Assembly (NCBI GenBank): GCA_951406725.2
Contig: OX597835.1
Coordinates: forward strand, 2,666,001 to 2,730,000
DNA from: Octopus vulgaris
Lineage: Eukaryota
Length of the DNA: 64,000 nt
Direction: 5' to 3'
Shown here: in pieces, positions 6,829-60,575 of the stretch
Numbering within the stretch: position 1 is the first letter of the stretch
Layout: every line of letters starts with the position of its first letter
Made by a program: the position numbers and the translations under genes
The notes under the pieces: model-generated
Seen by the model: the letters and a program-made list of their open reading frames with translations, nothing else
Database searches by the model: none
Told to the model about the DNA's origin: nothing

Positions 6829-7399
6829 ATTCTTTGTTCGGAATATTAATGTGTTTATAATAATTCTCAGTACTGTTTCTTCTGTTAGAAAAACTGAGAC
6901 ACGTAAGAGGAGGTGAGGTAGAAGTTAGTACGTCTCTTTAAAATAAAACTGTCATATAATCTTCGAAAACAAGAAAACAAATCCAGGTAAAACGAAGTGA
7001 GAAAAAAAAATGATAATTAAGAAACAGATACATTCTGTTGTGCGAGCTGTCATAAATTTGATATCCGGAAATACAAATTTACTCGATAGAAATAAAATTA
7101 ACGTTGATGAACTCACACTTGTAAAACACTGAAACCAACGAATTAAGAAAAAAGAATTCTCATATGTTTTTGCTTTACTCAAGCTGCCAATGACAGATTT
7201 TGAACATGGACTAACGAAATAGAGAATAAAAACTCACTTGGCAAAATCTTGTAAGTAAGAAAATTATGTTTCTCGAAGATCATTTTATTCACAGGTCAGA
7301 ATGAAACTAAGCTTTTTTAAAAAAAGTCTTGTGAGCAACAAGATGCTTTCCATCCTGCTCTTAACTTTCGCGAGATATCATCAGGTCGCTCTTGAGTGC

Positions 7400-7640
7400 T
7401 ATTGGTAATATGTAACCTAGTACAACCTGTTGCATGGCCGGGTCGTAGGCGACTAAACTGGCGGCCACACCGAGCTTGCTTGGTGAGCAGGGCGGAGCAA
7501 CTCATGAGTAGTGACGACGAGCGGCTACTGAGAATCTCAGGTTGTGAAAAACTGCCAAAGCACCTGGTTAACCTTGGCATATGCTCCTACAACTGCAGGT
7601 CTTTGGCAAGGGAGACCAACATGAATCACCTGATTACAAA
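7400..7640 (+). mobile_element. LINE 5' fragment (start of AP-endonuclease domain, RTE-like)
   Basis: Translation LGICSYNCRSLARE resembles the APE N-terminal motif (I-x-T/S-Y-N-C/V-R-S/T-L). Confidence 0.5.
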
Positions 7641-8329
7641 ACGCTTACATATGGCCTCGTATAGGCCATATGTAAGCGTTTTGCAATGTGAGAAATCGTG
7701 GTCCAAGAGATTCTCTGCAGTATATGAGTGTATAAAAGACAGAACAGTCTGTTTTTGAAAATAATCGGAACTGGCGTTCATTGCTAATCGTTATCAATTT
7801 TACCCTTAGTTCATATTTTCTGAGTTTATTTTTACGGTTGATATACAGGTTCAATACTTCTTTCACTATCCTGTTACTTGGCATTGCTGATATTATTCGT
7901 ATCTCATGACTATTTATATTAGTTATTTTACCACATATTCCGTCTATTTAGTGATGACTATCGATTGGTAACTGATTATTCATAAACTGTAAAAAGAAAA
8001 GAAAAATATATTTTGATGTAGATTATTCTCTTCTTGAAGTACCGTCGCCAGCCTATCACGTGAAACAGAATCATATTCTCTAAGCCTTCGGGCGTATGCA
8101 GACATTGGTTTTTGTCGTTTTGTTCTGGTTTCTTCGGATCCAAATGACCTTCCCTCCTTTTGATTTTGTTCCTTTACTGCAAACGTTTCGGTTTCAGTCT
8201 CGTGATTTTTGGTCGCATGTTGAACTGAAAAATTCTAATGTGGTTACAAATACCGAAGTATGTATATGTAGATTAAGCGTGCTGTAATAAATGGTAAACG
8301 AAATTAATATACACCTTGATGATAAACAA

Positions 8330-34459: not shown

Positions 34460-34984
34460 TACACACATTTTATATATGTTATTACATTATATTGTCTATG
34501 GAATCATATATGTATTTATTTAATATATACGTTCCTTTATATGCATATGTGCTTCTATGTGTGTGTCTGTGTGTGTTTAAGTATGAGTATTCATGTTTCA
34601 TCAGTATTATTATATAAATCAATAAAGCAGTCTACGAAAAATTCATTATCGCCGCTAATGTATATTGGATTGACTATTAATTAGAATGGCTTTTAGTGTC
34701 CAAATTAACTTTTAATGTAAATACAGTATATTTATACATTAAAATCATTAATATATAATACTGATATATATTAATACTAGCAGTAATACCTGTCGTTCAT
34801 CGGATAATTACTTTTACTCTTTCTCAGGAGTCACATTCAAAGTATTATTATATATATAATAGATTTCTCAACGGGGATTTCAGGGAGTCGCTGGCGATGC
34901 ATCGTGATGATCAAAAATCCGGCCTGCTAAAATTTGGTTAAAGTGATTCAAACTGCAGACTCAACGCAATATGGTCACATTTAA

Positions 34985-35490
34985 TTCAAAGCGGGGAAGA
35001 GAGGGAGAGGAAGAGAGTAGAGGAACGGTCCACGGAACGTGTTCTGGCAAGGTCTGTATAGATAGTGGTGAAGGGATATCCACGAAGGATGCTGTGGCGA
35101 GCCATGAGTTGAGACTGAGTCTCCGAATCATTGTTATCACTGCAGAGACTGCTGAGATAGAGGAATTGGGTATAATTGGGTGAGAAGGAGAGATGTTGGG
35201 GTATGAGGATGAGTCGGTGTGTTTGTAGTGGACGGGAGTAGCGAGAGCGGAGTCGTGTATGTTGACCGAAATGTCGGGAATGGCGACGGGAGTGTTGGAA
35301 ATAATACAGGAGAATTCGACAGCAGGATGGAAAGATTGGAGAGAAGAGAGAAAGGAGTCTAGTTGTTCAGGAGAGAGTGAGGTCGCGCCGATACAGTCAT
35401 CAATATAACGACCGTACGGTTCGGGAGTGAGACCAGGGAATCCTGAAAACATTTGGGCGTTAACGTAGCCAACGAACAGTTTCGCATAGT
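34985..35490 (-). mobile_element. Penelope-like reverse transcriptase fragment
   Basis: YAKLFVGYV...YGRYIDDCIG...FHPAVEFS...VHYKHTDS: YIDD catalytic motif in a PLE-typical context. Confidence 0.85.
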
Positions 35491-35514
35491 TGATATATAT
35501 ATGTATGTATATAC

Positions 35515-35582
<68 letters not shown>

Positions 35583-36828
35583 GCGGAAGCACACTCTCAG
35601 ACACACACATACATTGTATATGCAAACATATACATACATACGAATGATAGATGTTCACTCATTTCGCCTTCCATTTTTATCTTTTGTCTCAATTCCTTCA
35701 TGGTTTTTTTTATTACTTTTTATTTTCCTTTAAGAATTCCATTATTTAAAATACGATTAATATTCTTCTTTACTTTCATCAGGTTAATTTATTCACACCT
35801 TTGTTTATTATAAGCTCTTTAGGAATTTGAATTCCCAATCGGAAAAACATAACGGTCCATCATTGAAATATATTAACTGGCAACGATAAGCCTCGGTTTA
35901 TGTTTCTTTAGGTAATAGGAAACAGTTAATTCTGTTTCGTTTCTGTTGCTTCTCCGAAACTTCGTCAAATCGATTCTTCATTGAACGTAATTCAATTACA
36001 TTTTGAATGAGGTTTGTTGTTTTTTTTTTCAGAGAAGAAACGAAGTGAATTTTAATTCTCACTCATAGCAATTTCGGTGGTGTGAGTAAGTCGATTACGC
36101 CAAACCTAGTGATAAAATGGTAATATCTTATCAACCCTTAAAGGATCGAAAATTGTCTACTTCTGTTTTTCTTACAAAATACTCGCTTGTCCGGTGAGTA
36201 AAATTCATTGAGTAAAATTCATTGGCTCTTAGAGACCCAACACAAACAGTCCTTCAAACAAATTAAATTTTTTATGAGAGACGATTAGAAATGCTAAATA
36301 ATATTCCGAAATCAGTCATTTCAAAAACTTTTATTGTATCTTTCGATGTCGTGAAGGTTTGTTCAAACATCCCTTGTGACTTTGGAATTGGAGACATTTA
36401 ATTGTAGTTGGACAAATTATTCAGGTGAATGACCGCAAGTCTTAGAAAAATTATTAATTATAGAAAAATAATTAATCATGAATACAATAGATTTTTCATG
36501 TTCAGTGAAGACTTTTATCGGCAAAAACACATTTAAAAAAGAAATGGAAAAGTTAACTCGATGACGGTAAAAGAATTCAAAGCATCACTCAATGGAATTA
36601 TTAGAAATATACATTTTACTACTGAATATAGTGAAGACTGATTCGATTTTTATACATTCTGAGAAAGAATGACCACAACAAAATAAAATCAGATATTCAT
36701 TATAAACCTACAGACTCCAAAACAATATATATCTTTCAATTAGTGCCACCCAAGAGACACAAGATAATATGTTCATTAAAACTTAGGCAAAATGATCTGT
36801 ACAACTTTTAACGACAAATTATTTGAAG

Positions 36829-40966: not shown

Positions 40967-41267
40967 CTGGAATAAAGTACAAATTCACTAAACAGCGTTG
41001 AATATAACTGTACATGAATGGGTTAAACATGATGGTATATTTAACGCTAGCTGCAAATCTTTGATAAACTACATCTGCCAACATTGTGGAGTAACTTCGA
41101 GCCACTAGAAACAACTGTCGGACTTATAAGACTTTCCCCTCTTTAGTCTTGTAATCTTTATTCTATGTAATCTGAGTAAGTTTGCTCTGTTAGTACATAC
41201 ATCTATGTATATTTATACTAGAATGTTAATCATCTGAATATTTTGCATTTTCTTATTTAAATGTATA

Positions 41268-41339
<72 letters not shown>

Positions 41340-41402
41340 TAGATAGATAGATAGATAAATGAAAGAATGGAGTCGAACGACGATTTAACAAAATTCCTTT
41401 AT

Positions 41403-41483
41403 TCTCGACATATGTTTCGAAGACTGCATATTCTTAATTCCGAAGGAATAAAGGGTGCATTATGCCGCCTTCTCATCAGGAAA
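41403..41483 (-). ncRNA. Intact type I hammerhead ribozyme in a PLE terminus (element about 41355-41670)
   Basis: TTTC-CTGATGA-GAAGGC.GCATA-[loop]-TATGC.GTCTTC-GAAA-CATATG-TC|GAGA. Confidence 0.85.
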
Positions 41484-41668
41484 GACAAGAAACCTATGTC
41501 AGCATCATGACGAACAAAAACTTTTAGATGACTGCCCACACAGAGTCCATAGTGATAATGAGTGTTTCTTTAAAATATTCCGTTATAAGCAGTGACGTCA
41601 AAATTGGTTGGACGGAGAAGATTCTAAAAAGTTCAAGAGTTTAAAAATGGTTGGAATACTTAAACATT

Positions 41669-41709
<41 letters not shown>

Positions 41710-45230: not shown

Positions 45231-45327
45231 AAAAAATACGGAATGCTTCACGGATTTGCTGCTGTCCTTGCGCAGGGGCCATGCTAATCTTCTCTGTAAC
45301 GTTCCAATTTTAGAATATGTACCGCCG
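45231..45327 (-). pseudogene. RNU6: U6 snRNA-derived copy, 5'-truncated or diverged
   Basis: The reverse complement reads CGGCGGTACATATTCTAAAATTGGAACGTTACAGAGAAGATTAGCATGGCCCCTGCGCAAGGACAGCAGCAAATCCGTGAAGCATTCCGTATTTTTT. The ACAGAGA box and AGC triad are intact, the 3' side of the ISL is altered, and the first ~10 nt are missing. Confidence 0.92.
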
Positions 45328-45381
45328 TATTCACTATGATGCAAGCTTCCAATTCAAATTCATAATAATGAGAGTGAATGT

Positions 45382-48829: not shown

Positions 48830-49330
48830 ACGCGATGGAATTGGCTAACCACGATCCTGCTTACAAACTCAAATTGGCTGAATCGTAGAGAAAGTGAGAG
48901 AGCGCGAGAGGGAGGAGGAAGAGAGAGAAGCGGGAGAGAGGGAGTAGGAAGCTGAGGGAAAAAGAGGGAGGATAAGGGAGAGTAAGGGAGGTGGAAGGGA
49001 AGAGGGAGTTTGAAGAAAGAGGGAAATTGAATAGAGAGAGAGAGAGAGAGAGGAAGGAGAGAGCGGGAGAAGCAAGACGGAGGGAAGATGAACAGAGAGA
49101 GGAGGGGATGCAGGAGATACTGAAGGGTGAGAAAGAGAGAGAGGGGAGCACATAAGAGGATATTAGAGCGAAACGATTTCCAATTGGCCGCCTCTGCCGC
49201 CGCCGCCGCCCCGGCGTCCCCGATTCCTTCTCGAAAGCATGGAGCTGACGTGACATTCCTAAGATTATAAGAAACCTGATACACTTCAGCTTGTGGCAGC
49301 CGTGATTAATTTCCAATGGAAACACTTTTG
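48830..49330. promoter_or_regulatory. Promoter-like island
   Basis: Four CCAAT/ATTGG boxes (~48840, 48873, 49181, 49313), a (GCC)n CpG-rich patch at 49187-49222 and a CRE-like TGACGTGA near 49246, next to about 1 kb of repeat-free DNA. Confidence 0.4.
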
Positions 49331-57405: not shown

Positions 57406-57409
57406 TAAA

Positions 57410-57929
57410 TAAATGAAAGAATGGAGTTGAACGAAGATGTTAACAAAATTCCTTTACTCTCGACACATGTTTCGAAGACAGCATGTTTTCATTCCAAAGG
57501 AATAAGGGGTGCATTATGCAATATTCTCATCAGGAAAGAAAGGGAGCCTCTCTCGACAACAAGACAAACAAAACTTTCGATTATTGCCTACATGGTAAAC
57601 AAAGCGATAATGAATTTAAAAAAAAAACCCGTTAGAAGAATTGACGTCAAAAATAGATAGTAGGAAGAGAAGGGATTAAGTAATAATAGGTAGGGAACAA
57701 GTGGAGAGGGAAGGGTACGTTGATTGAAAGAATGCCCGAAGGCTTAGGAAAGAATTTCTCTATAGAAGTGGGGTGGACGTAAAGCTAATTGTTCAAACCA
57801 CAGTGACTATCGTTATCATTTATATGAGTAGAAAGTGTGTTTCTGCCAGTGTTTACATTTGTATGATTTTTCTATGAGTGTGTTTACTAGGGGAACACAC
57901 TCATAGAAAAATCATACAAATGTAAACAC
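57410..57929 (-). mobile_element. PLE 3' fragment with hammerhead and terminal fold-back
   Basis: Paralogous to 41355-41670. Ends in a 36-bp perfect inverted repeat (57849-57929). Confidence 0.65.
57457..57538 (-). ncRNA. Type I hammerhead ribozyme
   Basis: CTTTC-CTGATGA-GAATATTGCAT-[loop]-ATGCTGTCTTC-GAAA-CATGTG-TC|GAGAG. Confidence 0.8.
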
Positions 57930-59052
57930 AACCGTGTGTGTAGGTGTGTTTGTGTATGCGTGTATAGCTGTGTGTGCGAGTGTGATTGACTGACATACAT
58001 ACATGTGGTGTGTGCTGCCGTGGACCCACGAGTATGATTAATAACGTGTGCGTCTGTATGTCTTTGCATTGATTTAAACGTATGAATGTGCGCGTCTGTT
58101 TGCCTGTGCGTCTGTCTAACTGTTAGAATCTTTCAATACAGCGAAATTAAGATGTAAATCTCCCACCTTAAAACCTTATTATCTCACCTGAGGTGTCATC
58201 TATGCACCGTGCGTTGCATCTGGTGTTATTGTGTCATTCCATGGCCACAAGGGCGCACGCACGTACGTACATACATACAAGGGAGTAAGTTCGATGTAGC
58301 AGTGGCAAAGGGATATTTTCTAAAAGTGGGTTTCCAACATGTTTGTTATGAATTGCGGGTGTTTTGCGGTGATAATATGAGACATAAGAAGAAAGTGTTT
58401 TCCATCTGAAATTGATTGCTTTACGCTTTGAGGTACTATATATAATTTGAAAGAGACTATCGTGGCTTCGGTTTTGATTATGAAAAGTGTAAGAACACTG
58501 CTGGCAACTGAAGCTGCTGAGACTCATACTCAAACCAATATATGATAGATGAGTTGTTTGTTTTACGTAGCCATGTATACAGTGTGAGGAATTTTATACA
58601 CACCGTAGCGTGGACAATTATTTGAATTAATGCAGTTGGAATTGTTTAAGAATAGCCAAGTTTATTGGATTAGTTTGCAAGTAGCAACATTTTGCACAAT
58701 GTTATATGTTGTTATATATTTCTACTAAATTTTTATCGAATAATTTATGGCATTTATTGAAGAAAATATTTATTCAACAAAATGAGGAATATTTATGTGT
58801 CTGTTTCGAGTTTAGATATTACGTGTATGAAGCGAGACTCTTTTGGTCTTTCTCTTGTTTTCTTTTCGGTTATTTGCCATTCTTCATATGTTGCATTTCC
58901 TCTTGAAATCTAATTTGGATGAGAGTAACATTCCTGTAAGACATTGAAAATTCGTTGGTTTGCTGCAAGGTCACATTGCCGCAGGAAAACATTTCAGTTG
59001 AATTATATATACATATTTATATACATGCAGACCCAAAACATCCCCATTACTC

Positions 59053-59553: not shown

Positions 59554-60575
59554 CCAGGTGGTACTCAAAAGTAATCGGAAACGTTTTCTGTGGGACTAGC
59601 CTATTGTAGTCCAGGCTTCCGCTGTTAAAAGCCACTTGATGTGACCAACCTCATACAGAGCTCTCCTCCACCTCCCGAACGAATGAAAACATCACGAAAA
59701 TCGTGAACTCATATTGGAGGACGATCGTCAAACAATTGACAAGCTTGTTGATATAATTGGTGTGTCCTGGAGATCCTGCGAACGAATTTTGCGCGAGGAA
59801 TTGCGAATGGAACGAGTTGCAGCAAAATTTGAACCTCGCTTGCTCAAGAAAGGTAAAAAGCAGTTACAACTTTTGATCCTTCAACTGAAAGAACAGTTGG
59901 AAGTCGATCCGGACTTTTATTCAAAGGTTTTCACTGGTGACCGAAAGCTGGTGCCAAAGCTACGACCCGTAAGCGAAGCAGTAATCAAGCCAATAGAAGA
60001 ATTTAATGTAACAACGCTCACCAAAAACAAGAAAAACACCCCACATCGAGTGCTGTCCAATATCAAGACGGTGCTGATTTGTTTCGTCGAAGCGAAAGGA
60101 ATTGTCCGCATAGAAATTGTTCCTACCGGTCAAACTGTTAACCAGACAACTTACTTGAAAGTTCTGAAGCATTTGCGGGACGCAGTGAGACGGAAACATC
60201 CCGATCAGAAGCAAAGTGTGTGGAGAGTGGTAGTTTCATCACGAGAATGGACCTGCGCCGCACACCGCCTTTAGTGTGAGACAGTTTTTGACTAAAAGTG
60301 GCATGAAGCCGCTTACCTACCCCCCCCCCCCTGCAACATTTTTTTGTTCCCTTGAATGAAAACAGTCCTTAAAAGAAAACGTTTTGCAGATGAGGAGTTG
60401 GTGAAGAAAAACAAAAAAGGAAGTCGGCGTTGAAAGGTATCTCTTCACAAGAGGTGTGGGACTGCTTCGAACGAAGGAAAACGCGCCTGGACAATACTTT
60501 GAAGGAGATAAAAACATATAAAACTAAGTGAATGAAATAATATTGCAAAACTCCGGTTTTTTTAGTACCCCCTCG
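59554..60575 (+). mobile_element. Mariner (DD34D-type) transposon, internally deleted and frameshifted
   Basis: TA-flanked TIRs CCAGGTGGTACTCAAAAG and rc CGAGGGGGTACTAAAAA. Translation includes RVAAKFEPRLL, VFTGD and KTVLICF..KGIV..EIVPTGQTVNQTTY. Confidence 0.9.

Follow-up and report, generated by a model that had tools for sequence, protein, structure and literature searches.

A truncated Hydra-like Penelope element of Octopus vulgaris carries at its 3' end a type I hammerhead predicted to cleave as a dimer

The hammerhead motif at positions 41403 to 41483 (minus strand) of a 64,000-nt window of the Octopus vulgaris genome (contig OX597835.1, positions 2,666,001 to 2,730,000) is very probably a type I ribozyme that belongs to the 3' end of a Penelope-like element (PLE) copy truncated at its 5' side and lying within a TA microsatellite; cleavage is predicted only for a dimer held together by stem III. 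Because cutting is predicted to need two paired copies, the lone copy is likely silent. The anatomy of the motif, its copy number, its linkage to an open reading frame (ORF) with reverse transcriptase (RT) followed by an endonuclease of GIY-YIG type at the C terminus, the TA targeting, and two fixed 3' ends are direct observations from the genome. The motif is an ordinary PLE pseudo-LTR (pLTR) hammerhead of a known kind in a truncated Hydra-like insertion, and nothing sets the activity of the window copy above that of its sisters. The features of the locus are collected in Table 1.

Table 1. Features of the hammerhead and its host insertion, in window coordinates
Feature	Positions	Strand	Basis
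5'-truncated 3' end (3' UTR/pseudo-LTR) of a Hydra-like Penelope element; short-ended arm, stops 52 nt after the cut	41355..41656	-	Copies, sisters
Type I hammerhead: 4-bp proximal stem I, core, stem II of 11/12 bp, palindromic stem III	41403..41483	-	Descriptor, folding, 21-copy alignment
ACAUAUGU palindrome, predicted intermolecular stem III	41408..41415	-	Duplex -7.0 kcal/mol; cis probability ≤0.03
Predicted cleavage site after C17 (GUC)	41406..41407	-	Descriptor
30-nt loop II with inner hairpin; part can pair with the strand after the cut (predicted inactive alternative fold)	41431..41460	-	Folding
Distal continuation of stem I past the 3x3 internal loop (predicted)	41391..41495	-	Folding, 21-copy alignment
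Likely a stub of 11 nt, inverted, from the distal "long" 3' tail end of the family; second arm of the insertion	41657..41667	+	11 letters identical to the long end of L021, L023, and L030
(TA)n tract flanking the stub	41670..41703	.	Sequence
(TATC)n/(TA)n repeats next to the short end	41262..41354	.	Sequence

The first-pass annotation, made from the sequence alone, had described a full hammerhead core on the minus strand, and its anatomy was recovered in every part: CUGAUGA at 41479-41473, GAAA at 41418-41415, and GUC; a 4-bp stem I (UUUC, 41483-41480, with GAGA, 41406-41403); the 11-bp stem II with one mismatch, found as 11 pairs and one G.A mismatch (41472-41461 with 41430-41419); and the self-complementary ACAUAUGU at 41415-41408 as the site of stem III. 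A descriptor scan placed the predicted cut, after C17 of GUC, at the same 41407/41406 position that had been proposed. The minus-strand order over 41483-41403 is UUUC-CUGAUGA-stem II-GAAA-CAUAUGU-C-GAGA, and all residues of the type I core are present (C3-U4-G5-A6-N7-G8-A9, G12-A13-A14, A15.1-U16.1, and H17), with stems I, II, and III arranged around it, stem I open, and the G10.1-C11.1 pair in stem II. Past the 3x3 internal loop, stem I is predicted to resume with 9 more pairs (41495-41487 with 41399-41391); 88.8% of the cells of this distal stem are paired across 21 copies. The inner hairpin of loop II has 85% of its cells paired in the same copies and shows no two-sided change. An AAUAAA at 41398-41403 (minus strand) starts 3 nt past the cut, with AGUAAA in a sister subfamily; it may serve as a poly(A) signal, which cleavage would part from the upstream RNA.

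The descriptor found three hammerhead-like motifs in the window, all on the minus strand. Two hundred dinucleotide shuffles of the window gave loose matches at a rate of 0.015 per shuffle and no strict ones, a strict match being defined by a palindromic stem III and a stem II of at least 8 bp. The Rfam hammerhead models gave no match to the window motif at the gathering score or at E values up to 10, a failure probably due to the 30-nt length of loop II, and folding z-scores for the whole region were weak (-0.4 to -1.2). The second hammerhead, at 57450-57545 (minus strand), lies in an element of a sister subfamily at about 57408-57660; its stem III is ACAUGUGU, self-pairing through G.U, its stem II is weakened, and an inverted repeat at about 57850-57930 precedes it. 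The third motif, at 7328-7396 (minus strand), is unrelated (7-bp stem I, CUGAUGA, GAAA, AGCAUCU-U) and lies downstream of an inverted repeat at about 7640-7680.

The hammerhead sits within the last 302 nt of a 5'-truncated PLE in (TA)n. A first look with the 301 nt around the motif yielded 2530 candidates in the 2.8-Gb genome; 40 were scored, and the 39 other than the window copy were 96 to 97% identical to it. A 35-mer spanning the cut has 758 exact copies genome-wide, and further sister subfamilies gave 1059 pattern matches. Sister copies continue upstream for variable lengths into an ORF encoding RT and GIY-YIG domains. One of them, L061, is near full length and consists of an inverted short arm, a direct partial 5' pLTR, an 804-residue frame, and the 3' hammerhead, with its hammerhead positions 3560 nt apart. 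The frame carries IRW, DKT, and YRDD motifs followed by the endonuclease, in which there is a premature stop. The distance from stop to cut is 686 nt; the window copy retains only the last 250 nt before the cut and has lost the ORF and the upstream pLTR.

Judged by its motifs, the element appears to be a Hydra-like C-terminal EN+ PLE. A single ORF carries RT and then GIY-YIG (motifs YRDD and IY..YIG), and the pseudo-LTRs, 5' truncation, inverted arms, and optional tail typical of PLEs were found in L061 and in 98 fold-back insertions. A Pfam search with the L032 frame gave no significant match, and a protein search among longer proteins returned one relative. The Hydra clade traits found are DKT, the absence of CCHH, CxxC and CxH flanking E and N, the hammerhead, and (TA)n targets. 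At the RWK site, L061 reads RWL; in an alignment with a second element, found in L033 (39% identity over 643 columns), this RWL falls on RWK. None of the 33 endonuclease frames of the clan contains the CxCX5C linker, which does occur in the single frame from another family; for this reason we file the element as Hydra-like rather than as a strict Hydra member. Clan frames (e.g., L002, L079, and L237) have an asparagine-rich stretch at the place of the linker, as in Adineta PLEs. The second element, L033:7166-10000 (minus strand), is another Hydra-type element with an open 945-residue frame, clipped at the locus edge, that contains RWK, DKT, and CxCX5C; this frame is 39% identical to the L061 protein. 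Membership in the Naiad PLEs was rejected: the endonuclease is C-terminal and a hammerhead is present, whereas Naiad elements have an N-terminal endonuclease and no canonical hammerhead. The CxCX5C linker zinc finger has been proposed to guide TA targeting, and the clan inserts in (TA)n without it, counter to that proposed tie.

Stem II is well preserved across subfamilies: in 21 chosen copies, 91.8% of its cells are paired, with both-sided changes at 2 of 11 pairs. Stem III is fully self-pairing, with G.U allowed, in 75 of 80 distinct copies, some of which were fetched by a pattern fixing most of the motif; the commonest variant, ACAUGUGU (24/80), retains full self-pairing through G.U. Proximal stem I has at least 4 bp in 78 of the 80 copies, and H17 is C in 65, A in 14, and T in 1. 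A conserved pseudoknot between loop II and the strand after the cut was considered and rejected, being partly broken in the sister subfamily and absent from subfamilies with changed loops. In the inverted pair L252/L253 both arms have the same deletion of the hammerhead core, which implies that insertion or conversion went ahead in a copy whose ribozyme could not work.

From the palindromic stem III, the first-pass annotation had classed the motif with PLE and retrozyme hammerheads that cleave as dimers. The PLE type stood, as did dimer dependence as a prediction from folding, and retrozyme identity found no support. Stem III amounts to 2 bp when formed in cis and to 8 bp when formed in trans. 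With nearest-neighbor energies at standard state, which leave out tertiary contacts and Mg2+, folding the monomer into its active form costs 4.1 to 9.0 kcal/mol relative to the ensemble, and the cis stem III has a probability of at most 0.03. A double hammerhead lies 2.0 to 5.2 kcal/mol below two monomers, and the best cofold beats the double hammerhead by 1.8 to 8.6 kcal/mol. The folding preference for a dimer agrees with the published picture of weak, dimer-dependent PLE hammerheads (PMC4209133; review, PMC6765202): PLE hammerheads carry a small palindromic helix III, and the one motif assayed from Schistosoma mansoni showed no activity by itself and weak activity in dimeric form (PMC4209133). 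The window hammerhead is thus predicted to cut only as a dimer joined via its palindromic stem III. In tandem or paired element transcripts, to judge from folding and from papers on other PLEs, two hammerheads would form a double hammerhead that cuts slowly, and the protein of the element perhaps assists this cleavage.

We consider it unlikely that the hammerhead instead cuts as a monomer, with a 2-bp stem III and a 4-nt loop propped by the long stem II and by a contact of loop II to the stem I internal loop. Distal stem I and its internal loop are preserved across subfamilies, and a 2-bp stem III with a tetraloop resembles the arrangement in axolotl Amex2 and in invertebrate retrozymes that cut as monomers. 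In retrozymes this arrangement permits some monomer cleavage (22% in 1 h for axolotl Amex2; PMC7229834), and the extended stem I could help monomer cleavage here. The rarity of partners on the same strand also favors a monomer: complete hammerheads in tandem on one strand occurred in none of 24 ten-kb loci (opposite-strand pairs in 8 of 24), and a sister subfamily contributed one same-strand pair, 3.7 kb apart, among the pattern matches. Against the monomer stand the low probability of stem III in cis, with an active fold 4 to 9 kcal/mol above the ensemble, and the full G.U self-pairing of ACAUGUGU, which is consistent with selection on the palindrome. Tertiary-stabilized hammerheads have short loops, whereas loop II here is 30 nt.

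The family has two fixed 3' ends, 52 and about 207 nt past the cut (~155 nt apart), and TA-type repeats adjoin 23 of 27 short ends and 18 of 19 long ends. Fold-back insertions (108 counted, 99 fetched, and 98 retained after one duplicate was removed) combine one short and one long arm in 94 of 98 cases by script, the remaining 4 being alike by eye. The window copy follows this rule: its short-ended arm (41656-41355) meets the 11-nt inverted long-end stub, which lies directly at the junction beside (TA)n, with TA tracts on both sides. Similar stubs occur in L240, L246, L248-L251, and L255. Fold-back junctions (L110-L208) often fall on short ribozyme palindromes (ACATATGT, TTCGAA, and TCGA), and 46 of 98 have microhomology of at least 2 nt. 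Of 196 fold-back junction arms, 93 run through the cut site, and the window copy also keeps both sides; therefore, the template held both sides of the cut and, for most templates, was uncut there or religated.

The Poseidon element offers an analogy. In vitro, its reverse transcription starts at two internal sites to yield a "tail," and its hammerhead is protein assisted and dispensable for insertion (Frangieh et al., PMC11167929). From the Poseidon result, we infer the same two-start process for the octopus element: its RT would have primed at nicked (TA)n from two internal RNA start points (52 and about 207 nt past the cut), one product being the arm with the short end and the other the inverted stub with the long end, and the two would then have been joined, on template RNA presumably uncut at the ribozyme site or religated.

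Insertion junctions were also examined for footprints of cleavage, since a cut RNA used as template would give arms starting at +1. In the 98 fold-backs, 9 arms (7 junctions) start cleanly at +1, compared to a neighbor mean of 2.9 and a next highest count of 7 (naive Poisson P = 0.003); this count is confounded, since CpG decay of C17 may account for 5 of the 9 and the cut falls inside a TCGA palindrome. In a matched pattern test across the genome, there were 9 matches at +1 versus 8 at -2, or 9 versus 6 without one internal-deletion insertion that had been counted twice, and patterns with three mismatches gave 5 matches (4 insertions) starting at the cut versus 0 and 1 at two control positions. 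A more far-reaching proposal is that two element RNAs stay paired during insertion through the stem III palindrome, one of them being primed at the long start and the other at the short start from the two nicked strands, that the modest excess of +1 arms is a genomic record of cleavage in vivo, and that for insertion of this kind in (TA)n the clan needs no linker zinc finger. RNA-RNA pairing via stem III would explain the near-strict rule of one long and one short arm; as a whole, we regard this proposal as rather improbable.

The first-pass annotation had singled out this motif as the best candidate for an active ribozyme, one that could cut a minus-strand intronic transcript. Special activity and intronic cutting are unsupported because the ribozyme is that of the family majority, there is no tandem partner, and no host exon was found. 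Positions 41403-41483 equal the majority of 29 sisters, and the copy is a lone truncated arm. Its five differences from these sisters all lie outside 41403-41483, and two weaken distal stem I: the nearest private changes, at 41494 and 41490, turn pairs into G.U wobbles. Positions 41613 and 41542 also hold letters private to this copy. The sole same-strand clan hammerhead in the window is 16 kb away, and a heterodimer with it is predicted to be 5 kcal/mol worse than two monomers. A Pfam scan of 150 of 175 frames of at least 58 aa, a size below which exons would be missed, revealed no host exon. In contigs of three runs guessed to be RNA, repeat parts were covered, including family-like pieces over 41375-41656 with the letters of other copies, and the unique flanks were covered only in a fourth run, a pattern that speaks neither for nor against expression.

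Several other features occur in the window. A U6 snRNA match at 45232-45334 (minus strand; 82.3 bits) is full length with changes in the 5' stem and may be a gene or a pseudogene. The stretch 48840-49260 is GC rich and promoter-like; besides several CCAAT boxes it contains one TGACGT site and an extended run of purines, and no exon was identified there. A mariner-type transposase remnant (Pfam Transposase_1) lies at 59687-60271 (plus strand), and an RT remnant with YIDD, likely of another Penelope type, lies at 34961-35596 (minus strand).

Uptake by the host, in which the copy would act on a minus-strand pre-mRNA running across it, by cutting or by regulation, is very unlikely. An effect on the host requires a minus-strand transcript because the hammerhead cuts the RNA that holds it. 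The intact core, the shared minus-strand orientation of all three hammerhead-like motifs, and the promoter-like stretch with CCAAT boxes at about 48840-49260 are compatible with such a role, but the copy is young (~97% like its sisters) with no sign of locus-specific constraint, the Pfam scan of 150 of 175 frames revealed no host exon, and it has no nearby partner, the one available heterodimer being unfavorable. Equally improbable is a noncoding retrozyme monomer that spreads through circular RNA: the type I hammerhead with palindromic stem III is shared with animal retrozymes (PMC7229834), and descent of retrozymes from PLE pLTRs has been proposed (10.64898/2026.07.22.740005), but the window locus has no tandem units, the sequence belongs to the 3' end of an element that codes for protein, and sisters reach variable lengths into the ORF, as expected of 5' truncation. 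A non-LTR retrozyme in the strict sense (tandem noncoding units of 150 to 450 bp, each with a hammerhead) was rejected on the same locus, a single arm continuous with a coding element.

The window hammerhead, read as a truncated PLE copy, adds one more member to a known class of PLE hammerheads already published for an octopus Hydra element (PMC8557442). The role of the hammerhead in EN+ PLEs is stated there to be unclear. The value of the clan lies in its use as test material: cleavage footprints can be counted at the junctions of its thousands of near-identical young insertions, its naturally occurring G.U palindrome variant lends itself to testing dimers, and its endonuclease targets TA while lacking the linker zinc finger.

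A literature search for octopus hammerheads, whose scope stopped short of bioRxiv supplements, returned only PMC8557442 as relevant. That paper reports hammerheads and (TA)n targets in Hydra PLEs, with Hydra-1_Obim in the supplement. The octopus element shares with the Hydra clade, including Hydra-1_Obim (Craig et al. 2021, PMC8557442), the order of RT then C-terminal GIY-YIG, DKT, the lack of CCHH, CxxC and CxH around conserved E and N, a hammerhead near the 3' end, (TA)n targets, and 5' truncation with inverted arms, and the N-terminal half of its protein resembles the printed Hydra-1_Obim protein, as compared by eye. It differs in that L061 reads RWL at the RWK site and that the CxCX5C linker is missing from all 33 clan frames, and in having a repeat unit of about 3.56 kb where Hydra elements usually have <3 kb, and a tail of about 155 nt where 30 to 40 bp is described; its hammerhead (12-position stem II, 30-nt loop II, and 8-nt stem III) is also unlike that of Hydra-1_Obim.

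The PLE hammerheads described by Cervera and de la Peña (2014, PMC4209133) are likewise type I motifs in the pLTR, with a 4- to 5-bp helix I, a large helix II, G10.1-C11.1, and a palindromic helix III, and most copies are solo and tied to truncated PLEs. In comparison, the octopus motif has no extra nucleotide between A9 and 10.1, a longer loop II with a hairpin, and a predicted distal stem I. Animal non-LTR retrozymes (PMC7229834; 10.64898/2026.07.22.740005) share the type I fold, a weak palindromic helix III, and dimer-enhanced cleavage but are tandem short noncoding units, whereas the hammerhead here is part of a coding element. Poseidon_Ac of Anolis (Frangieh et al. 2024, PMC11167929) belongs to another clade, and its hammerhead overlaps the ORF start, whereas here the ORF begins after the tail and the two ends are about 155 nt apart; the two elements have in common two fixed 3' ends past the hammerhead, AT-rich targets, and inserted copies that retain both sides of the cut.
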